A program made the translations under genes and the position numbers. A stretch of 64,000 nt of DNA from Eledone cirrhosa. Its lineage: Eukaryota. Below, in pieces: positions 10,303 to 58,219 of this stretch. Every line of letters begins with the position of its first letter. The stretch's first letter is position 1. The stretch is from assembly GCA_964016885.1 (NCBI GenBank), contig OZ024742.1, forward strand, positions 80,538,001 through 80,602,000. The letters are read 5' to 3'. Below the pieces are notes generated by a model that worked only from the letters and a program-made list of their open reading frames with translations, was not told where the DNA came from and ran no database searches.

Positions 10303-13300
10303 CTATAAAACCTCCTTTGCACAATGTTTTTTTGTTTTTCCTTGCGGAACGAACGCGAAATCATCACTCTTGCTGCCGACACGCGAGCAGCCAACGTAAA
10401 GCTGACCATGAGAGAAACATGGCTCCCCCAAATGTATTCCTGCGACAGACAGTGTTTGCCCCTGAGCTTTGTTAATTGACATTGCGAAGCATGGCCTGAC
10501 CGGGAACTGGGACCTCCGAAATGTGAAAGTTAGGTCTGCTCCTGATGGGAAAAGATGCATCCTCGGTATGAGCACAATCTTGCCCCGACCGACCCCTGTG
10601 ATTATCGTGTCCGCAATCAGATTGGGAGCTAAGGTCGTAAAGACCAAGCGTGTGCCATTGCATTACTTAGGCGGAACCAAATTTCGAATGACCATTATAA
10701 GGGCACCAACTTTAAGTTTCAAAATGTGTGGGGGTAATCCGGGGGGCTCAAAGGAATTTAGTACCTCTATTGGATAGTTGATGACGTCCTCGGGGTCAGG
10801 AGTTCTATCGATATACTTATATACGTAGCCATCCCCTGGAATGAGTTTTAGCATTTGATCATTAATATGATTAACAATATTATTCCTCGGGTCCAGAATA
10901 GCCCTTTGGACAAGCCAATCCATATTCTGATAATTTGCTTGGAGATCTGGGAACACTGCATCCATGAGATCAGAAGGCGTACTAACAACGGTACAAAGTG
11001 AGTCGATGGCAATATTACCCTTTTCATCCCCGGGCGTTTTGCCTTCGCCAAGTGCAAGGAGGGTGTTAGAAAATGCTGCTGATGCGATATCACCTTGCAT
11101 ATGAGCACGCATGTTAATGTGAAGTTTCAGAGTCTTTACCAGAGGCCACAATGCGGATGACTTAAGACACGCACGTACTGCATCAGCTCTAGTCCCCTTG
11201 GGAATAACGGGATGCGTTTGCATGAAGTCGCCTGAAAGAAGAAGTGTTATGCCTCCCATTGGAGCCGTAGAGTCTTTGATGTCTCTCAGAGTTCTATCGA
11301 GCACCCCAAGAGCACCTCTGTGGGCCATCGTGCATTCGTCCCAAACGATAAGCTTGCATCGTCTGAACACTTCTGCCTGATCGGAGGTCTCACTGATGTT
11401 GTAAGTGGGTGTCTCAGTATTCGCTAAGTCAAGCGGGAGCTTGAAATAGGAGTGAGATGTCATGCTGCCCGACAACAAAGTAGCCGCAATTCCAGATGAT
11501 GCCATAGCTAAGGCAATGCCTTTGTTCGCCTAATCTCAGCTAATATTAATTTGGTGACAAAAGTTTTCCCAGTCCCCCCAGGAGCGTCCAGGAAAAACAT
11601 CGCCCCAGCTTTGCCTCGGAGTTGTAAGCGAATTTCTGTTCTGGAAGGAGCTTTGGCTCATTCTCCGCTATGTACTGGGCAAGCTCGTCAACATTATAAG
11701 ATGTCTCACGCAGCAAATCCGAAGACAGAGTGTCTGCGCCTTCCCGGTTTGTTGAAGGTAGGCCATACACAGCCAACGCATTACCGCCCATATCGAGAAG
11801 AGTATCTTCGATTTCAAGCAGCGCCCTGTTGTAAATGAGGTCGCTGTACCCGACCTCCATCGATGTGCTTAACAACTGAGCGTAACGCAGGAAATTTTCA
11901 GACATGTAATCTTTGTAGCTAAGCCATAAAGAGGCCGGAACACCCAAGTCGCACCATTGGAGTAGAATAGCGAAAAGCGATCTTACTCTTTTAGGAGATT
12001 TCAACAAAACGCCCTCTGTCATAGTGGCGCCCCATTGTGAATCATCCTCCAAAAGGCCACGCCTAAAGCAGGCTTCCCGGAAAGTATCATATAATTCACC
12101 GTCAACTGTTCTTATGTATCGAAAGCTTTGTGGGCCAAAAACCTCATGGAGGAGAAGGCGCAGTGAAAACACTCATGCTGGTTGGGAGGTACAGTGTACA
12201 CTCTTCCTAGACAACTGTCAAACTTGACACCAGGATGTCCTTCAACATTCTTGCCTGACTTCCTACGCACCCAAGTGTTGTTTGACCACACGTAGTAGGA
12301 CGGGACCTGAGGATATGAAAGTGTTTTTGCAAATGTGTCAAGTTGGCAAAGCGTAAAAAAACAGTCAAAGTTGTTTCTTTTGGATTGGCCGCCAAATGAG
12401 CAGCAGTCTGTTCAGTAAAGTAATCCCACTGGCCGTTTTCCAAATGAACCGCTATTTGTATGATGGCGAGGTGCCTTTGGTGAAGTAGAAACCCGAATAT
12501 CCGCCAAAAAGCTTCACCACTGCTGATATATCGACCTGCCAAGTGCTCCGAGACCTCGTTCCTGGTATTGTCGTTTTGAAGGCCAAACATGGCAGCGTCG
12601 GAACCCTTGTTAACATATTTACATATGTACTTTATCGACTCCACTGAATGACAGAACACCACATTACTATGAGCGTTGAAAGTTTTCATCAGAAATGGAC
12701 AGTACGGGACCACCCACCTATTATCAACTTGATGACCCCGTATCGTCATAGTGAATCCAACGTTCTCAGGCCGCCTTCGTCTGTACAGTGGGTATCCGTC
12801 GCTGCCGGTCTGGGTCTCCTCATCAAACCTCTTTGGGTATCGTTCAGTGCACACATGGTCCTTGTGACATGAAGAGAACTCTTGAAAACCGGGACCGCAC
12901 GGACCGTCCACCATGTGTTCCTTCACAATGTCCTACAGCTGCCGGTCAACAACGGGGTCCGGTATTTCCGCTGTGATGATGTCATCTAGAACTGTAAGGT
13001 CTATTTTGGTGACCAACCGCGTGTGGCAACCCTCTCTTATGCCACTCATCAGTATACATGTGGCACCTAACAGGCCCGAAAACCTTCCCTTTTTTTATTA
13101 GATCAATTAGCTTAGCCAGCTTCTGCCTGAAAACCCTAGCAATAATATCGGGCGGATGGCAGTACTGCTGCTCTGGGATAAGTTCCCGCGTAACCTCAAC
13201 CCATTTGGTGTTACACGTAAACTTGGTGTTGCCGAACGAACGTCATAGCGTCCTGTGTTCGCTCGTGCATGTACCCCACCCCCGTATAGGTTGAGGGGAG

Positions 13301-14997
13301 AATGCACATTATGCCGATGCTCCGGGGGTCAGTGTCATTCCTGATGCCGTCACACAAATGGATGTAGGAGTCTGAGCGCAGCTGCTTCTGATTCACTTTT
13401 ATGAAGCACAGTCTCTCCGACTCTATCTTTGCAGTCATGTCAACTGCAAACTGGTGAAACAGTTCCCGTGACATGTGCAGGGTGCTGAATGTTGTTAGGC
13501 CTCGTCATGAAGCGGTATGAGTATAAAGCCATGCATGAAACAGTTTTAGATTTCGCAGCAGTGGGCTCGTTTGGTTTGCGCTGAGGAATGCCGAAATGGT
13601 AGCCGTCTTCTCCGTATGCAATAAGAAGAGAATGCTGCAGGCCGTCGTATGAACGATGCGTCTCATTAATACGTCGAAGACCACTGTCACGACTTTGAAG
13701 AAGTATGTCTCGCTTATTGTGCTGATCACCATGGATAACTACGGCCACTTCATTGCACGAAGGACCGTTATAACGGCGTGCGTGCTCCCCAGAAGGTCTT
13801 TTGTCAGCATCGATTCAATGGTGAAGTTTGGTGAAGGATTTGTTTCCAATGCGTATTTGAAACTGCGAATATAACTGTTGTGCTCATGAAGCATGTTTTG
13901 AAGACCGAGCAGCACGTCCCTTTTAAAAGTGTCAGCATCAATATTTGCAGGTGTTGGAATAATGCCGAACCGCGCATCAACTTGCCTACTATAGTTAGAA
14001 ATGAAGTAAATTTGAAGGAACGAAGGCTAGTAATTATGTAGTGGCATCCAACCACTTTCTTTGAAAACGTTAGCCCCGAAAGAAGTCATTTGAAACGCAC
14101 AATTGTACTTCCTGATGAGTTGAAGGAATTCGGATGACCTTGAGGTAGAACCAGTAAGTAGTTCCTTCAAAGGCTCTGGTGGTTCCCCAAGCGGGGGCAA
14201 GCTGACCTTACCGTTTAAGCAGCCCATTGCAGGTGGCTCCCCAGCCCACTTTTTACAATTGCAGAATTTGCGATTGAAGCGCATTTCCCCTATATTTATG
14301 TCGGCACGCATCGAGTAGTTAACGTTGGGCTCATACTTGAAAGCCCGTAGGTGTCAGTATGAGTGTTGGGGCTCGTCACTCCGCGGGCAGCTTCTTGTCG
14401 TCGACTGTTCAACTCCAACGTAAAATGTTGCTCCTGTGGGTCGTGGGAAGCTCTCGCAGCAGTAGCAGAAGCTACCCTTACAATCCTAATGGAGCGACCG
14501 TCTGCATCTTTAGAAGCCATGGAAGCAGTCATAGCCGCAGCGTTCCTAGCAAGGCCATTCGTCCGCCGTTCCAAACCTTCCAAAGCCCTGGAAGCAGCAG
14601 TTGCCGCAGCGTTTCTAGTCAGTCGAGCCGCCCTTTGGTCCGGGCCCTCTGAAGCCCTGGAAGCAGCAGTAACAGCAACGTTTCTATTCAGGCGAGTCGA
14701 TCTTCCGGGCCCTCTGAAGCCCTGGAAGTAGCAGTAGAAGCATTTTTGGGGGGAATGACGTATCGACCGCTCTGAATCGCACATCGCAGCACGTCTCGAG
14801 GCGTCGTATGAAGCCATCTTGGCATGGCGTGCGGTGCGTTGTTGAAAACTTTCAGCAGCGCTGCATTCCGCTGAACGTAAGGCGCTCTGTGAAAGTCTTA
14901 AAGCAGTTTCCTCGGGGGACTCGTTTGCTGTAATCGCCCTCTGCGCCGCCGCTGACGCGGTATGGCAACCGAGGCAACTTCTCTTTATAGGTGGCAT
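10303..14997 (-). pseudogene. Helitron RepHel (HUH Rep + PIF1-family helicase), multiply frameshifted
   Basis: Motifs LPSTYTG, EWHKRGLPHA, IKYICKYVNKG, ASSGIAATLL, LIVWDECTM, GDFMQ, QFPVRPCFAMSINKAQGQT and HGQLYVGCSRV are spread over about nine ORF pieces. Confidence 0.92.
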
Positions 14998-15349
14998 TTT
15001 ATGTAAAAAAGAAAGGGTGAAAGTTACTTTTACAGCAACATTGACTTTCAAAGTGTAAGGCTGAAACCTGTCTGCGTTCCGCAGGGGGTAAAATGGGAGA
15101 ACGAACGGCAAATAAATAACTCATAGTTTGTTGAAAGCGCGCTTCTGTCGGCAATTTGAAGTTGTTTGGCCAAAAATCCCTATGTGTTTTTTTTTTTCAC
15201 TCAATAAACATGTAAATATGTTATACACAAACTGTAATTGTGTGTGAGTTGAATGATAGCTGTTTTAAAAAAAGATTTTAAGCGTATATAAGAGATTGTT
15301 GAATAAATTTATCTGTTGCTTTTGAATAATTGTAGTTTGGTATAAAATT

Positions 15350-15999: not shown

Positions 16000-16061
<62 letters not shown>

Positions 16062-16067
<6 letters not shown>

Positions 16068-18620
16068 ATACTTTGGGAGGGTCATGTTGCCAATAAGAAA
16101 AACACGCACCAGCTGCTTTCACTTCAATTTATTATAATAAATTTATAAATTTAGGAATTTATAAATAAATTTCCGGTTGGTTGGTTGGTTCCACAACCAG
16201 ATGTTTGTTTATATATTGTCAAAGTTCTTTCGTCACACATTATGTGACCTCTTCAGTGACTGGGGATTCTTTTCTTTGTTTTTGTGCCTCTCCTTTGTTC
16301 TTTCCTACGCCATCTTGTTTCTGTGTGTGTGTTCTGTGCTCAGTCTGCGCATGCGCCACATCCGGGTGTCTGTGTGTGTTCATATTCGTTTATTTATTTG
16401 TTTATTTACATGTTACAGGTTGGTTGTTTGTTCTATGTGCGTGTCTGTTTTCATTTTGTCCTTAATTGTAAGTTGTGATGTTGCTGTTCCACTCATGTTT
16501 TCTATTTAATTTTGGTTGTAATTCTTTTATGTTTATTGCCTCTGTGATTTGTCTAAACATTGCGTCTTTTCTGTGTGTAGATTCTATTTTTATTTCTATG
16601 TTCTCTAATTTACCCTTATGTTCTATTTTAGCATGTTGGTAGAGTACATATGATTCTTTACTATCTTGAAGGTCTCGCCCGTGTTCATTTATCCGTTCCC
16701 CTACACTACGATCTGTCTCAACTATGTACACTATATTTTTGTCTCTACATTGTCCTTCAGTACATCTTATGCTATATACTGCATTTCTAGTTTTACAGTT
16801 AATATGGGGGCTTAATTTACATGTTATACATTTCTTATCTATACAGGGTGTCTTTGAAAAGGGTATGTCTTGCTAATAAGTGTTTTACGGAGGTACCTGG
16901 TCTTTCTACTATCTTAATATTGAGATTATCTTTATCTAGGGCCCTTCTAAATTTGTAAGCTAATTCACCTCTAGCGGTTTTATCGATGAAATTTACACTC
17001 TGGTATTTATTGCTATCAAACCATGAATGTATTCTATTAGCCTTATTCCTAGTTCTTTCTATTCTATTCCAAAGTTTGCTCCTATACAAGGGGCAGGTCC
17101 CATTTGTGTCATTATTTAACATTTTTTCCCATTTGGTTCTGGCTCCTCTATACACTCTGATGTTATCTCTTTGATTGTAACCAGAGAACTGCATACGGTG
17201 GATGAAGTGGTGTATGTGTCTCTCTAGTTCTTCGGGGTTGCACATTCGTGACACGTTTCTCGTCACCCGTACCAAAGCCGCAATCAGTATGTTGATTTTG
17301 GTATGGTCCGAAACAGCTCAGTTTCGGAGGATCAGATCTTTGGAAGTCATGGGTTTGGCATAATGGGAATGGAGGATTTGTTTTTTGTTATTAATGGTAT
17401 CTAACCAGAGCTCTGTGTCTAGTACAGGTAATCGATGGTTGGGGTGTTTACTTGGGTAGTCTATAGTAACACTAATACTCTGGTGGATGGAGTTAGCTAT
17501 TTGCTGGATGCTTTCCATTGTGTTTTTCTCTAATTCCTGACTGTTCTCTAGTGGGCGTGTTTTAACTACGATGTTTATATCATCAACGTAGCGGGAGTAC
17601 ATTATCAGGGTTAAGGGTTCTTCTAATTGTTCTTTACGTTTAAGTTTAAGTCTACTGTCCCACCATACCATGAATAAGTTAGCTATGTCGCCTGCAATGC
17701 TAACACCAATGGCTGCTCCTTCCTCTTGGGCATATGTTTTTCCATTAAATTTGAACATATGTTCCTTAAGCGTTAATGTTATGCTTGCGCCCACCGTATG
17801 TGCAATCATTTTCTTTAGTTCATCGTGGTTTTCGGGTGTCGGTATGGCTCTGGTCCACCCGTTCCATCTATCTGTGTGGGTTTTCTTGGCCATTGAGGTA
17901 ATGGTAGCTGGTCTGCCTCTTGCTGGTCATGTAGGGTCACAGGTTGCTAAGGTCATATGTGTCTAGGTAATTATTACTATAGGTAAGTTTAAGTAGGAGT
18001 ACCAGCTCAGTGGTATCAATCCCACGGAACTCAACATTGTTTTCACTGATAATTTCTACGCATTTATCCACAGCAAAATCCTCGTCAATAGATGGATACA
18101 GGGACACAACATCCATACTACCTATTATGCAGTTTGTTAGGTCCCTAGATCGGTTACTCTCACCGATTCTGCCGAGGAGGTCCTCCGTGCTGTCACATAC
18201 ATCTGGGGACATTTCAATGATGGGGCGTATGATCAGGGAGAGGAAGTAGGACAGTCTGTAGTTACTAGCAATGTTAGTTCCACAGACTGGCCGTGTTGGT
18301 GGTCCCGTGACAGTGTCACTGCCCGTTTTATGGTCTTTTCGAAGACCATACAACGCTGGCACGTCATGGTTCCAGGCCTGGAAGTTGTTGGCAGTCCTTT
18401 TGTTGGGCTGCATTATATTTGTCCATATCACCATATGGGCAGACATTTCTGTTGGAAAGCATGCTATCTCTCCATTACGCGAGCGCATGAGCTTACGCAA
18501 GCCATTTGCAGATTTTTCTCCCAGTTGCTGGGCCTCCATTCTATTATGCTTCTTGCTATACTGTTCTATAATATTTCTAAGTTTAGATCTAGCTATACTA
18601 AATTGTGCTTCTGTTTTTCA
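16062..18620 (-). mobile_element. Penelope-like family B (Neptune-like), 5'-truncated, frameshifted RT + GIY-YIG + pLTR
   Basis: LYGLRKDHK, PTRPVC, GSMDVVSLYPSI, QEEGAAIG, YSRYVDDI, YIVETDRS..RINEH. Confidence 0.93.
16218..16260 (-). ncRNA. Minimal type I hammerhead in family B pLTR
   Basis: gtca CTGAAGA g GTCAC ataatgt GTGAC GAAAG aa CTT tgac. Confidence 0.85.
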
Positions 18621-18699
18621 TCGACCTGCGACGGCAATTGCGTGCGTTTGTTAAAAGGTAAAGTCGTGGCGTGGACTCGTCGCAGGTCGAACGACTTAT

Positions 18700-19965
18700 C
18701 GGATTTGGTACGGGTGATGAGAAACGTGTCCCGCATGTGCAACCCCGAAGAACTAGAGAGACACATACAACACTTTATCCATCGTATGCAGTTCTCTGGT
18801 TACAATCAGAGAGATAAAATCAGAGTGTATAGAGGAGCCAGAACCAAATGGGAAACAATGGTAAATAATGACACAAATAGGACCTGCCCCTTGTATAGGA
18901 GCAAATTCTGGAATAGAATAGAAAGAAGTAGGAATAAGGCTAATAGAATAAACTCATTGTATGATAGCAATAAATACCAGAGTATAATGTTCATCGATAC
19001 AACTCCTAGAGGTGAATTAGCTTAGACATTTAGAGGGGCCCTAGATAAACATAAACTCAATATTAAGATAGTAGACAGACCAGGTACCTCCGTAAAAACA
19101 CTTATTAGCAAGATATACCCTTTTCAAAGACCCCCCTGTATAGATAAGAAATGTATAACCTGTAAATTAAGCCCCTATATTAACTGTAAAACTAGAAATG
19201 CAGTATATAGCATAAGATGTACTAAAGGACAATGTAGAGAAAAAATATAGTGTACATAGGTGAGACAGCTCGTAGTATAGGGGAACGGATAAATGAACAC
19301 TGGCGAGACCTTCAAGATAGTAAAGAATCATCTGTACTCTACCAACATGCTAAAATAGAACATAAGGGTAAATTAGAGAACATAGAAATAAAAATAGAAT
19401 CTACACACAGAAAAGACGCAATGATTAGACAAATCACAGAGGCAATAAACATAAAAGAATTGCAACCAAATTAAATAGAAAACATGAGTGGAACCGCAAC
19501 ATCACAACTTACAATTAAGGACAACATGAAAACACACATTCACATAGAACAAACAACCAACCTGTAACATGTAAATAAACAAATAAATACACGAATATAA
19601 ACACACACAGGCACCGGGATGTGGCGCATGCGCAGACTGAGCACAGAACACACACACAGAAACAAGATGGCGTAGGACAGAAGAAAGGAGAGGCAAAAAA
19701 ACAAAAAAAGAATCCCCAGTCACTGAAGAGGTCACATAATGTGTGACGAAAGAACTTTGACAATATATAAACAACCATCTGGTTGTGGAACCAAGCAACC
19801 AACTGGGAATTTATTTATATATTCCTAAATTTATAAATGTATTATAAAAAATTGAAGTGAAAGCAACTGGTGCGTGTGTTTCTTATTGGCAACATGACCC
19901 TCCCACAGTACAACAATATCGGTTTCAACACACGTTTTCAGATAAAGAATCTTGCTAAACAAATT
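18700..19965 (+). mobile_element. Inverted partial copy of Penelope family B (thumb, GIY-YIG, pLTR)
   Basis: Reverse-complement match to 16062-17280, with YIGETARSIGERINEH. Confidence 0.92.
19719..19761 (+). ncRNA. Minimal type I hammerhead in family B pLTR
   Basis: gtcactgaagaggtcacataatgtgtgacgaaagaactttgac. Confidence 0.85.
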
Positions 19966-19985
19966 TATATATATATATATATATA

Positions 19986-20073
19986 TCATCATTATCTATA
20001 AAAGGCAGATTATTGTTGTTGTGTGTGTGTGTGTGCATGTTCCATGTTTATACATTTACAAAATTTCAAATCG
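19986..20073 (+). mobile_element. Isolated Helitron 5' end
   Basis: tcatcattatctataaaaggcagat... matches the reverse complement of 15915-16002. Confidence 0.8.
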
Positions 20074-46467: not shown

Positions 46468-46498
<31 letters not shown>

Positions 46499-46732
46499 TT
46501 AGAAACACACAGATACATGCGGACACACACATATATACATGAATGCATCCGCACCCAACTGTGAGTTAAGGGTGCCAACTTCACCGATGTTGCTCAATGA
46601 ATGACTGGGACAGACCAATTCAGTTTGAACCAGACTGAACCAGTATCAGAGTTAAAAATACATTATGAAGAGAGAAGAAACATTTAGATATAATTAGTAA
46701 TAAAATGTATCATACCTAAACTGCTCCTAAAT

Positions 46733-46820
46733 TCCTCGACTACGTAGTTTCGTGGCATAAACAAAAACAATATATCAAAGATATAGAGTCCTTGCGAGGT
46801 CTGCCAACTTATCAAGAGGA
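46733..46820 (-). ncRNA. Type I hammerhead, U3:A8 core (inverted unit)
   Basis: Reverse complement of 47292-47379. Confidence 0.8.
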
Positions 46821-47291
46821 TACCTCATTTTACTAGTCTCAAGAACGCGTCTACACGACGTGAGAAAGAATCCCAAAAGGCGGAGGGGGAGATAGTCACG
46901 CGATATAACGGTCGAGAAACAGAGCTAAGCCTCTTATAACCACGAAGAAAATACCACGGAGGCGGAGGGGGTATTCATATCGAGGCCGTAGAAGAGGTAG
47001 TGAAGAAGGCGAGAAGTATGAGTAATGGAAGCTTTCCAGTTGTCCCCACACTTCAAAGATTGCTCGACCAGAGGGAGTTATTAATATATTTAGAAACACA
47101 CAGATACATGCGGACACACACATATATACATGAATGCATCCGCACCCCGCCTCCGTGGTATTTTCTTCGTGGTTATAAGAGGCTTAGCTCTGTTTCTCGA
47201 CCGTTATATCGCGTGACTATCTCCCCCTCCGCCTTTTGGGATTCTTTCTCACGTCGTGTAGACGCGTTCTTGAGACTAGTAAAATGAGGTA

Positions 47292-47379
47292 TCCTCTTGA
47301 TAAGTTGGCAGACCTCGCAAGGACTCTATATCTTTGATATATTGTTTTTGTTTATGCCACGAAACTACGTAGTCGAGGA
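47292..47379 (+). ncRNA. Type I hammerhead, U3:A8 core
   Basis: tcctc TTGATAA g.TGGCA [insert] TGCCA.c GAAAC TA CG TA GTC gagga. Confidence 0.8.
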
Positions 47380-47882
47380 ATTTAGGAGCAGTTTAGGTAT
47401 GATACATTTTATTACTAATTATATCTAAATGTTTCTTCTCTCTTCATAATGTATTTTTAACTCTGATACTGGTTCAGTCTGGTTCAAACTGAATTGGTCT
47501 GTCCCAGTCATTCATTGAGCAACATCGGTGAAGTTGGCACCCTTAACTCACAGTTGGGTGCGGATGCATTCATGTATATATGTGTGTGTCCGCATGTATC
47601 TGTGTGTTTCTAAATATATTAATAACTCCCTCTGGTCGAGCAATCTTTGAAGTGTGGGGACAACTGGAAAGCTTCCATTACTCATACTTCTCGCCTTCTT
47701 CACTACCTCTTCTACGGCCTCGATATGAATACCCCCTCCGCCTCCGTGGTATTTTCTTCGTGGTTATAAGAGGCTTAGCTCTGTTTCTCGACCGTTATAT
47801 CGCGTGACTATCTCCCCCTCCGCCTTTTGGGATTCTTTCTCACGTCGTGTAGACGCGTTCTTGAGACTAGTAAAATGAGGTA

Positions 47883-47970
47883 TCCTCTTGATAAGTTGGC
47901 AGACCTCGCAAGGACTCTATATCTTTGATATATTGTTTTTGTTTATGCCACGAAACTACGTAGTCGAGGA
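47883..47970 (+). ncRNA. Type I hammerhead, U3:A8 core
   Basis: Same sequence as 47292-47379. Confidence 0.8.
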
Positions 47971-48473
47971 ATTTAGGAGCAGTTTAGGTATGATACATTT
48001 TATTACTAATTATATCTAAATGTTTCTTCTCTCTTCATAATGTATTTTTAACTCTGATACTGGTTCAGTCTGGTTCAAACTGAATTGGTCTGTCCCAGTC
48101 ATTCATTGAGCAACATCGGTGAAGTTGGCACCCTTAACTCACAGTTGGGTGCGGATGCATTCATGTATATATGTGTGTGTCCGCATGTATCTGTGTGTTT
48201 CTAAATATATTAATAACTCCCTCTGGTCGAGCAATCTTTGAAGTGTGGGGACAACTGGAAAGCTTCCATTACTCATACTTCTCGCCTTCTTCACTACCTC
48301 TTCTACGGCCTCGATATGAATACCCCCTCCGCCTCCGTGGTATTTTCTTCGTGGTTATAAGAGGCTTAGCTCTGTTTCTCGACCGTTATATCGCGTGACT
48401 ATCTCCCCCTCCGCCTTTTGGGATTCTTTCTCACGTCGTGTAGACGCGTTCTTGAGACTAGTAAAATGAGGTA

Positions 48474-48561
48474 TCCTCTTGATAAGTTGGCAGACCTCGC
48501 AAGGACTCTATATCTTTGATATATTGTTTTTGTTTATGCCACGAAACTACGTAGTCGAGGA
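48474..48561 (+). ncRNA. Type I hammerhead, U3:A8 core
   Basis: Same sequence as 47292-47379. Confidence 0.8.
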
Positions 48562-48630
48562 ATTTAGGAGCAGTTTAGGTATGATACATTTTATTACTAA
48601 TTATATCTAAATGTTTCTTCTCTCTTCATA

Positions 48631-48705
<75 letters not shown>

Positions 48706-48993
48706 CAAATAACGAAACGAAATTAAATTTCGTTTCGTTTGTAACTCACTTTTGTATGACTGACGCTTAAACAATTAAGTTAAAAATGTACATCCACATA
48801 TGTATACTGAAATACTAGTATGCCTATGAATACACACACGTATACATATGTAGATGTACCGAGTTTTTCACTGGTCACTTTACTGTGAGTGTCCAGCTAT
48901 TCTGTATGTAAACACACAGACAAACCGGTTTTTAGAGTCATACTGGTTTTTAAGGAAACACCTTTCCTCTATTCTCCAGAAAGCCAGACAAGG

Positions 48994-49038
48994 AATATTG
49001 AACTAGTTTCGATGTTGTTACATCTCATCAGCAATATT
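48994..49038 (-). ncRNA. Canonical minimal type I hammerhead
   Basis: Reverse complement of 49181-49225. Confidence 0.88.
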
Positions 49039-49180
49039 TACCTATCTTCCGGCCTCTCTAGAGAATCGTAAAAGCACATATCGTTATATGCTTTTTCTAT
49101 GAAAATTAGTAGTGGGCAGACCAATTTGCATAGAGCGTGAGTACGTACCGGTTCAACGGAGAGAGGCCGGAAGATAGGTA

Positions 49181-49225
49181 AATATTGCTGATGAGATGTA
49201 ACAACATCGAAACTAGTTCAATATT
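49181..49225 (+). ncRNA. Canonical minimal type I hammerhead
   Basis: aatattg CTGATGA GATGT aaca ACATC GAAAC TA GTT caatatt. 7-bp stem I, palindromic stem III. Confidence 0.9.
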
Positions 49226-49528
49226 CCTTGTCTGGCTTTCTGGAGAATAGAGGAAAGGTGTTTCCTCAAAAACCAGTATGACTCCAAAAACCGGTTTGTC
49301 TGTGTGTTTACATACAGAATAGCTGGACAATCACAGTAAAGTGACCAGTGAAAAACTCGGTACATCTACATATGTATACGTGTGTGTATTCATATGCATA
49401 CTAGTATTTCAGTATACATATGTGGATGTACATTTTTAACTTAATTGTTTATATATATATATATATAAAAGAAAATTTCGCCATACATGGCTGAATACAA
49501 TACATGTAATCTGATGTTTTCGAATGTT

Positions 49529-50117: not shown

Positions 50118-50183
<66 letters not shown>

Positions 50184-50186
<3 letters not shown>

Positions 50187-50755
50187 TATTGTACGTCTGT
50201 ATACATATATGTATGTACGTGTACATACTTATATTCAAGTAACAGCCGTATTAAGAGTGAGAAATGAAATTTCGTTTCATTTTTTCCATTTATCGTTTTC
50301 GGTGCGCCCGGCCGATTAACTCACTCGATATGCAAATTAGGCTGCTCAGCCGTTAATATGTATAAGGAAAGTATATACTTTCAGACGTTCAACCGTCTGG
50401 CAGAAAGGTATACGGTGCTGACGATAGCTAATAAGCTTGAAACTACTACATCGTTCCTTTGTCAGTGTTGAACAAAAGGGCAACGATGGTTGCTAAACAC
50501 TGTATGGCTTAATTCGGGATGTTTGTTTACAAACAAACCGAGCATTATAACAAATGCTCGGTAAATCCATACGTACATATATATATATGTGTGCATGTAT
50601 GTATATATATATATACATACTACTGTATGTATGTATATATATATAAATACTACTGTATGTATGTATACATATATGTATGTACGTGAACATACTTATATAT
50701 AAGTAACAGCCGTATTAAGAGTGAGAAACGAATTTTCGTTTCATTTTTTCCATTT
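50184..50755 (+). mobile_element. Non-coding HHR element: 464-bp unit plus about 90-100-bp terminal direct repeat; HHR at 50412-50454
   Basis: Repeat starts at 50198 and 50662. acggtg CTGACGA tAGCT aata AGCTt GAAAC TA CTA catcgt; the sister copy near 26520 has GTA at the triplet. Confidence 0.75.
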
Positions 50756-56747: not shown

Positions 56748-58016
56748 CTAAGCATGTTGGTAGAGTACAGATGATTCTTTATTATCTTGAAGGTCTCGCC
56801 AGTGTTCATTTATCCGTTCCCCTATACTACGAGCTGTCTCACCTATGTACACTATATTTTTGTTTCTACATTGTCGTTCAGTACATCTTATGCTATACAC
56901 TACATTTCTAGTTTTACAGTTAATATGGGGGCTTATTTTACAGGTTATACATTTCTTATCTATACATGAGGGTCTTTGGAACGGGTATGTCTTGCTAATA
57001 AGTGTTTTTATGGAGGTACCTGGTCTTTCTACTATCTTAATATTGAGTTTATGTTTATTTAGGGCCCTTCTAAATTTGTAGGCTAGTTCGCCTCTAGGGG
57101 TTGTATTGATGAACATTACACTCTGGTATTTATTGCTATCATACCATGAGTTTATTCTATTGGCCTTGTTCCTAGTTCTTTCTATTCTATTCCAAAATTT
57201 GCTCCTATACAAGGGGCAGGTCCCATTTATGTCATTATTTACCATTTTTTGCCATTTGGTTCTGGCTCCTCTATACACTCTGATTCTATCTCTCTGATTG
57301 TAGCCAGAGAACTGCATACGGTGGATGAAGTGTTGTATGTGTCTCTCTAGTTCTTCGGGGTTGCACATGCGGGACACATTTCTCATCACCCGTACCAAAT
57401 CCGCAATCAGTATGTTGATTTTGGTATGGTCCGAAATGGCCGAGTTTCGGTGGATCAGATGTTTGGAAGTCATGTGTTTGGCATAATGGGAATGGAGGAT
57501 TTGTTTTTGGTTGTTAATGGTATCTAACCAGAGCTCTGTGTCTAGTACAGGTAATCGATGGTTGGGGTGTCTACTTGGGTAGTCTATAGTAACTCTAATG
57601 CTCTGGTGGATGGAGTTTGCTATTTGCTGGATGCTTTCCATTGTGTTTTTCTCTAGTTCCTGACTGTTTTCTAGTGGGGGTGTCTTAACTACGATGTTTA
57701 TATCATCTACGTAGCGGGAGTACATTATCAGGGTTAAGGGGTCTACTAATTGTTCTTTAAGTTTAAGTTTAAGTCTACTGTCCCACCATACCATGAATAA
57801 GTTAGCTATGTCGCCTGCAATGCTAACACCAATGGCTGCTCCTTCCTCTTGGGCATATGTTTTTCCATTAAATTTGAACATATGTTCCTTAAGGGTTAAT
57901 TTTATGCTGGCCCCTACCGCATGTGCAATCATTTTCTTCAGTTCATCGTGGTTTTCGGGTGTCCGTATGGCTCTGGTCCACCCGTTCCATCTATCTGTGT
58001 GGGTTTTCTTGGCCAT
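56748..58016 (-). pseudogene. PLE RT C-terminal half + Zn linker + GIY-YIG, 422 aa, ending at a premature stop
   Basis: YSRYVDDI, CIDKKCITC, VYSIRC..C..VYIGETARS. Homologous copies read through this stop. Confidence 0.9.
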
Positions 58017-58219
58017 AGAGGGAATGGTAGGTGGTCTGCCTCTTGCTGGTCTTGTAGGGCACAGATTGCTAAGGTCATATGTGTCTAGGTAATTATTACT
58101 ATAGGTAAGTTTAACTAGGAGTACAGTGTGGCCAGTGTTGTCACTGAAATATATATCACAGCATTGTTATTAAAGGACTTGAACATCTGAAACTACTTCG
58201 CTTTTCCTTATTCTCTCTA

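Follow-up and report, generated by a model that had tools for sequence, protein, structure and literature searches.

The analysed window, 64,000 nucleotides of contig OZ024742.1 of the Eledone cirrhosa genome, contains an array of a non-coding repeat with a period of 591 bp, flanked by (TA)n on the left and on the right. The array consists of 1.11 inverted and 2.52 direct units without any mismatch between units or arms. The two arms lie head to head with outward 3′ ends and overlap by 1 nt where the orientation turns (at 47147). Unit position 1 was set at 47375, the first nucleotide after a predicted ribozyme cut, and the features are as follows.

46476..46492, no strand: (TA)n target, left flank
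46493..47147, minus strand: inverted arm, 1.11 units (655 nt), with its outward 3′ end at start site B (unit position 245)
46733..46826, minus strand: hammerhead, exact mirror of 47877-47970, predicted cut 3′ of 46738
47147..48636, plus strand: direct arm, 2.52 units (1490 nt), with its 5′ end at unit position 364
47286..47379, plus strand: type I hammerhead copy 1, predicted cut after 47374
47286-47290, plus strand: GAGGU bulge of hammerhead copy 1
47292-47296 with 47375-47379, plus strand: stem I of hammerhead copy 1
47297-47303, plus strand: core UUGAUAA of hammerhead copy 1
47361-47364, plus strand: GAAA of hammerhead copy 1
47375..47965, plus strand: predicted monomer 1, 591 nt from cut to cut
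47441..47453, plus strand: segment at unit positions 67-79 with predicted pairing to the sequences flanking the cut site, which would block the ribozyme in the monomer
47455..47619, plus strand: 165-nt ‘tail’ from start site A (47454) to start site B (47619), repeated at 48046-48210
47626..47643, plus strand: CTCC-N5-GTCGAGCAA motif 3′ of site B, repeated at 48217-48234 (moderate confidence)
47877..47970, plus strand: hammerhead copy 2, predicted cut after 47965
47966..48556, plus strand: predicted monomer 2, 591 nt
48468..48561, plus strand: hammerhead copy 3, predicted cut after 48556
48637..48701, no strand: (TA)n target, right flank

A preliminary description of this DNA had placed a tandem plus inverted array in (TA)n at 46494..48635, which is confirmed by the layout above, and the three predicted plus-strand cuts delimit two exact 591-nt monomers as it proposed. 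The inverted arm begins at unit position 182 and the direct arm terminates at site A (unit position 80). The outer ends of the array, previously taken as arbitrary, are instead fixed family-wide sites at unit positions of about 80 and 245. The unit has a GC content of 41.6%, and its longest ATG-started frame, with the unit read as a loop, is 75 aa; its ends are internal to the unit and no LTR is present, all of which agrees with the non-coding, LTR-free and GC-poor (<50%) character of non-LTR retrozymes. That the array is a collapse or chimera of the assembly is practically negligible as an explanation: although none of the listed pieces of public sequencing runs spans the whole locus, the layout and the end rule recur at more than 100 other loci, each with locus-specific haplotypes, the unit was matched in 6 of the listed runs from 3 studies, and contigs carrying 621 and 620 nt of it are present in two public runs.

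Every tandem unit carries one type I hammerhead, as in metazoan non-LTR retrozymes, with the core boxes, three stems, an NUH triplet and a 3-8 pair in its U3:A8 variant; the core, stems and GAAAC side are present as first described. In copy 1, stem II has a single bulged base (47306) and a 46-nt loop containing ACCUC (47312-47316), and the short stem III is closed by a palindromic ACGU loop. An Rfam search of the unit's ribozymes returned no match at E ≤ 1. Among 247 ribozyme extracts the core reads UUGAUAA in 234 (10 were unparsed and 3 had another core), and it is the best-conserved part of the unit; older copies show one compensatory change in stem I. The GAGGU and ACCUC segments, whose complementarity suggested a possible pseudoknot contact of loop II, are conserved in old and young copies without any covariation. 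A cross-family argument for this pseudoknot, drawn from an unrelated 316-nt family, was dropped, since the loop of that family resembles an ordinary type I loop. The U3:A8 core, initially regarded as a novelty, has already been described in Penelope-type elements (PLEs) of Schistosoma and is common in the E. cirrhosa genome, where a short-loop U3:A8 hammerhead pattern gave 2,850 matches versus 115 for the control.

In the centroid fold of the local RNA, stems I and II form. The active hammerhead fold is predicted to be 1.6 kcal/mol less favourable than the minimum while the RNA is nascent. The gap widens to 7.4 kcal/mol when the transcript extends to about unit position 86, since the segment 67-79 then base-pairs with the sequences flanking the cut. 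The modelled order of folding may thus allow cutting first and protect the monomer afterwards. The 591-nt monomer is predicted to be stably self-paired, like those of metazoan non-LTR retrozymes (z-score of –6.7; none of 100 shuffles equally stable). Across 30 older loci, its pairs include 35 broken pair types against 57.5 expected at random (random minimum of 37) and 9 compensatory ones against 4.4 (random maximum of 12). Two long-range pairings suggested earlier were not borne out: GGTCGAG/CTCGACC has a pairing probability of 0 and no covariation, and TGCGGA/TCCGCA forms a local hairpin with partners 30 nt apart.

The genome (3.0 Gb) encodes a molluscan haemocyanin; one of its units matches the octopus structure 1JS8 (855 bits) better than the squid structure 4YD9_C (738 bits), which points to an octopod host. 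An exact 24-mer from the 3′ half of the ribozyme has 7,444 matches in the genome and its control has none. The first 100 matches listed fall into 50 loci, which suggests a dispersed family of about 3,700 loci. We sampled 40 best-match loci (L031-L070, which are therefore biased to near-identity), 49 position-ordered loci and 60 further ones; 3 of the latter 60 had no arm at ≥75% identity. The layout of the array recurs at many of these dispersed loci. Identity among copies ranges from 75 to 100%, and the subfamily of the 46493..48636 copy accounts for 746 ribozyme matches; consequently, the epithet ‘young’ holds for this subfamily, not for the family as a whole, and a recent insertion of this copy is supported. 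The term ‘large’ is inappropriate, since published retrozyme families span 51-972 bp, and ‘replicon’ is an overstatement, as nothing in the data requires RNA-to-RNA replication. At one locus, L083, a complete insertion is present twice within a local duplication (about 2.55 kb); this locus was left out of the mutation spectra and arm-end counts.

Judged by its sequence, this is a dispersed non-coding family of the animal non-LTR retrozyme type, as originally proposed, with tandem hammerhead units and a monomer predicted to fold stably. The alternative that the unit is only the pseudo-LTR of a coding PLE was contradicted by the absence of a flanking reverse transcriptase frame in all 40 loci analysed; such frames were also absent from the 5′ flanks of further loci, about 150 of some thousands of loci having been examined. 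Two loci adjoin Hydra sequence, which we read as insertion or chimera. Searches for a parent element gave no genome match for a C3:G8 version of the family and 17 matches versus 7 in the control for a minimal same-stem ribozyme in a coding PLE, with no family emerging. A further ribozyme-pattern search returned variants and junctions of the 591-nt family itself, and a low-stringency search was dominated by microsatellites among the matches listed.

The 3′ ends of the arms are strongly constrained: site A (72-82) and site B (243-253) together account for 222 of 238, and in 219 of these 222 the sequence continues into (TA). Single-arm insertions end at either site, and head-to-head insertions combine one of each in 79 of 91 cases (47/52, with the L083 duplicate counted twice, and 32/39 in the new loci), A/A or B/B pairs being never found. 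The other 12 have one end elsewhere, and several of them are old or edge-cut loci. Few-base overlaps were found at 51 of 70 two-armed junctions. The A/B pair is a Penelope ‘tail’, 165 nt long and strictly with one of each end. Like those of non-autonomous PLEs, these are inverted plus tandem insertions with a two-site tail in a microsatellite target, where within (TA)n a target duplication is unreadable. PLE-type integration, suggested earlier from the layout of the array, is thus strengthened by the paired fixed ends, and priming at two sites in the PLE manner is highly probable. In L1 twin priming, two primers from one target break give rise to an inverted 5′ part; in contrast, both arms of the 591-nt family can exceed one unit and cover the same sequence, and both start sites are fixed.

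Described PLE insertions likewise comprise partial tandems and an inverted 5′-truncated copy, with two internal starts, an AT-rich target and extension of both strands (PMC11167929, PMC8557442, PMC3846280). A PLE protein, modelled as a dimer, started cDNA at two internal RNA sites in vitro and extended both DNA strands (PMC11167929). The tails given in these publications are 30-40 nt and called ‘optional’, unlike the 165-nt tail with strict one-of-each pairing found here (PMC11167929, PMC8557442, PMC3846280). The starts of the 591-nt family lie in UA-rich RNA that could pair over 3-6 nt with a (TA)n primer, whereas the Anolis element as described starts without homology (PMC11167929). A further difference from coding PLEs is the lack of a reading frame.

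To characterise the template, variants were compared between arms and between passes through the unit. For 21 position-ordered loci, the divergence between arms of one locus was 0.0053 versus 0.0366 between loci, and none of 5000 permutations gave a value as low; in 26 loci of the best-match set the corresponding values were 0.001 and 0.0034. Variants at sites read at least four times were present in all passes (54) or in one pass (53), with only one in all but one pass and five at intermediate frequency. The junction across the cut site was exact in 255 of 259 passes, the other four having single substitutions, with no indels. Unit position 1 is not the start of any of the 142 arms, and 5′ ends near the cut show a slight excess (12/142 versus 7.2 expected). 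These shared haplotypes and all-or-one variants support the repeated copying of a unit-length RNA inferred in the preliminary description, and the template was probably a circle copied round and round. Locus L050 has private variants in every pass of both arms (14/14), together with three unit-specific marks, each once per arm, and one mark recurring four units apart. As the unit-specific marks are found in both arms, multimers or conversion occur at least sometimes; in this single case the template may have been a multimer, or conversion may have followed.

The all-pass variants have a pronounced strand asymmetry. The mutation spectra, based on loci at ≥97% identity (n=108), comprise 69 distinct sites of this class, 29 with A>G and 10 with T>C (p = 5e-6, given 132 A and 213 T in the unit); one of the 29, site 576, was picked by the search pattern itself. 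Single-pass variants, by contrast, include 8 A>G and 16 T>C among 97. A G precedes only 1 of the 29 A>G sites versus 28 of 132 A overall (p = 0.009), and avoidance of an upstream G is a reported ADAR preference (PMC5625713). When variants are polarised with 30 older loci as the reference, the excess persists in each of the two subfamilies (11:5, p = 0.013; 18:4, p = 4e-5), with the same sites recurring in both. L114 carries seven A>G changes in all 7-8 passes of both arms. For strictly private all-pass variants the excess is modest, with an A>G to T>C ratio of 8:3 (p = 0.022), and 2:0 in the new set alone (p = 0.15). A>G sites show no preference for a downstream A, and 5 of 9 are unpaired in the monomer fold, so they are not confined to stems. 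Copies of a Hydra-type PLE, Hydra-A, have no such bias (7 versus 5, ratio 0.82), and the same test in ten loci of the 316-nt family gave an uninformative 4:2.

We consider an RNA-level origin of the A>G marks very probable, with ADAR as the presumed cause. An edit in a linear multimer would mark one pass only; therefore, the edited molecule appears to have been a monomer of the ribozyme strand that was read repeatedly. An A-to-I-edited monomer that was copied over and over, in the simplest case as a circle, would account for the pattern, and one molecule may have served both arms. The polarity also indicates a sense template, which counts against the idea of antisense self-priming put forward in PMC3846280.

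Taken together, the family shares all testable features of animal non-LTR retrozymes and behaves like a non-autonomous PLE, cleavage and circles being predicted. It is likely that we are dealing with a PLE-dependent non-coding retrozyme whose edited circle is copied from two fixed starts, one per strand. Tandem transcripts would be cut by their predicted hammerheads into 591-nt monomers, which would then circularise, by analogy through ligation by host RtcB. A PLE-type enzyme, possibly Hydra-A, would cut both strands of (TA)n, and cDNA would be primed at sites A and B, 165 nt apart, one for each DNA strand. One circle, often apparently A-to-I-edited, would be copied repeatedly into both arms, and the two truncated cDNAs would be joined by short microhomology. 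A more specific version, in which a dimer of a Hydra-clade PLE primes both (TA)n strands on a single ADAR-edited circle, so that each insertion is a single-molecule fossil and editing a main source of heritable change, could equally prove right or wrong. With regard to cleavage, eight of nine Xenopus retrozymes were reported not to cleave in vitro (bioRxiv 10.64898/2026.07.22.740005).

The same element and enzyme might also operate without a covalent circle, on uncut linear multimers or by a 5′-to-3′ jump on a cut monomer with paired ends, the ribozyme being incidental. PLE insertion in vitro did proceed on unprocessed RNA, and ribozyme mutants had no effect on it (PMC11167929); the marks in L050, the weak excess of 5′ ends near the cut and a predicted helix across the cut site that could keep a nicked monomer closed would also be accommodated. 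We nevertheless regard this as unlikely, since edits in linear multimers would be single-pass, yet the A>G excess is restricted to all-pass variants, and since neither indels in the junction passes nor run-off at position 1 were observed and the ribozyme core is better conserved than the rest of the unit. Much less probable still is growth at the DNA level, in which one pseudo-LTR or monomer inserts and is then multiplied by unequal crossing-over and conversion, with A>G reflecting transcription-linked DNA mutation. A satellite route of this kind was proposed in the preprint by Li et al., a few intermediate patterns do occur in L050 and L097, and L083 is a segmental duplicate. However, this route would be expected to leave variants at intermediate frequency, seen at only 5 of 113 sites, and it does not account for the many scattered loci where arms of several units run in both orientations without a mismatch and stop at fixed outer ends, or for four to seven A>G changes clustered on single haplotypes; moreover, an arm continuing into a reading frame was found in none of 40 loci.

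Concerning the enzyme, Hydra-type PLEs with RWK, DKT and CxCX5C motifs and a (TA)n target are abundant in the genome. All 150 scored protein matches of Hydra-A were at 100% over 247 aa, many of them in 785-codon frames, and its DNA identity is at least 99.1% (31 copies). Hydra-A has RWK, DKT, CxCX5C and a C-terminal nuclease region, is inserted in (TA)n, and has two ends 118 nt apart; its assignment to the Hydra clade (PMC8557442) is by motifs. The CTCC and GTCGAGCAA elements are common to the sequences following site B and the second end of Hydra-A, and the similarity of site B to Hydra-A site 2 takes rank 6 among 591 windows and rank 29 among 3,697. An older Hydra relative (L111) retains the CTCC-N5-GTCGAGCAA motif, which also occurs in an unrelated repeat. 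A similarity between site A and Hydra-A site 1 was rejected (rank 212/591).

On balance we lean towards the Hydra-A lineage as the helper. A different PLE lineage, either another U3:A8 Hydra family or a Neptune, Poseidon or Naiad type, with the rest of the mechanism unchanged, is conceivable to a lesser degree. Many PLE families here target (TA)n, the U3:A8 ribozymes detected belong to other Hydra families (L120-L126) and not to Hydra-A, and the unit has no extended homology to Hydra-A, their best exact match being 10 nt. On the other hand, Hydra-A is intact, is as young as the subfamily of the array and has a 118-nt tail of its own, and the motif after the start is shared with L111, a comparison that covers Hydra families. 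The literature search, which covered main texts in part, found no non-autonomous partners of Hydra PLEs.

In L144 (minus strand) and L198:2105-3242, arms of the 591-nt family directly abut Hydra sequence of like orientation, with no (TA) between them; either insertion or a template switch would fit. Neither was accepted as proof of a template switch: L144 ends exactly at the end of Hydra-A itself, so that insertion into its flank fits equally, and L198 is one old case. Two Hydra-type PLE families, represented by loci L120-L126, bear terminal U3:A8 hammerheads and have tails that measure about 108 and 197 nt; Hydra-clade hammerheads have been reported as canonical (PMC8557442). An intact Hydra-type PLE with a 785-codon frame has expanded very recently, as seen in L129, L138 and L215-L244; its copies are often arranged head to head, and its 5′ region contains at most a doubtful minimal hammerhead.

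Metazoan non-LTR retrozymes likewise consist of non-coding tandem units with one type I hammerhead each and a GC content below 50% (PMC7229834), reach thousands of copies and fold stably; a PLE helper and rolling-circle reverse transcription have been proposed for them (PMC7229834, bioRxiv 10.64898/2026.07.22.740005). As far as their published descriptions go, the 591-nt family differs in its U3:A8 core with a 46-nt loop II, its inverted two-armed insertions with paired fixed ends and its genomic A>G marks. Self-pairing of the monomer that would block the ribozyme, as predicted here, has been reported for plant retrozymes and not for most animal ones (PMC7229834). Circles, described for metazoan retrozymes, are predicted for this family. 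Cercyon PLEs of Schistosoma also show covariation of the U3-A8 core and a palindromic helix III; their hammerheads are minimal, heterogeneous and mostly single, in contrast to the full-size, homogeneous tandem hammerheads of the 591-nt family, and circular templates have been proposed for their more-than-unit copying (PMC4209133). Ribozyme-made circles have been discussed as PLE templates since 2014, and rolling-circle copying is proposed in both PMC4209133 and PMC7229834; how the tandem and inverted insertions of PLEs arise is still called open in the literature.

The element class, the U3:A8 core variant and the PLE tail are therefore already known. What appears to be new is the pairing of two fixed starts in insertions and the likely RNA-editing marks repeated in every unit; we found no publication of such genomic evidence or of a cephalopod retrozyme, while the supplements of PMC8557442, PMC7229834, PMC11167929 and the preprint may bear on this. 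The family provides countable genomic evidence on how PLEs make tandem plus inverted insertions, and offers a test pair of a 591-nt substrate with mapped starts and a naturally intact candidate enzyme. In addition, it suggests that RNA edits have likely entered the heritable DNA of animals whose group is noted for extensive editing.

Other hammerhead families were observed in the genome. All eight two-armed loci of the unrelated 316-nt U3:A8 tandem family (L087:518-2168 and L130-L138) obey the one-of-each end rule, and its tail measures 23-33 nt. Its stem II covaries between subfamilies. Of 19 intermediate variant patterns noted, eight come from an older copy that lies alongside in L135, and period-2 marks in L134 could stem from a dimeric template. 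In L127-L129 and L139 there are additional, diverged hammerhead-like motifs of the U3:A8 kind whose stem III is palindromic.

Within the window, a hammerhead repeat that is unrelated to the array, lies head to head and has the canonical core CUGAUGA occupies 48701-49451; it is also present in L038 and L087 and shares the right (TA)n run of the array. Its ends appear to lie about 70 nt apart, and its hammerheads match Rfam HH9 (E = 1.6e-6) at 48978-49049 on the minus strand and 49170-49241 on the plus strand. A 464-nt spaced repeat lies in (TA)n at 50120-50755; the motif at its end is similar to the one in the adjacent canonical-hammerhead family, and hammerhead scans of this repeat found none. 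The minus strand at 56751-58166 carries a PLE fragment with weak reverse transcriptase and GIY-YIG matches and a CUGAAGA hammerhead-like motif downstream (56378), and head-to-head pieces related to this fragment are located at about 16000-20000. Broken frames at 10663-15120 on the minus strand presumably resemble a Helitron Rep/helicase.
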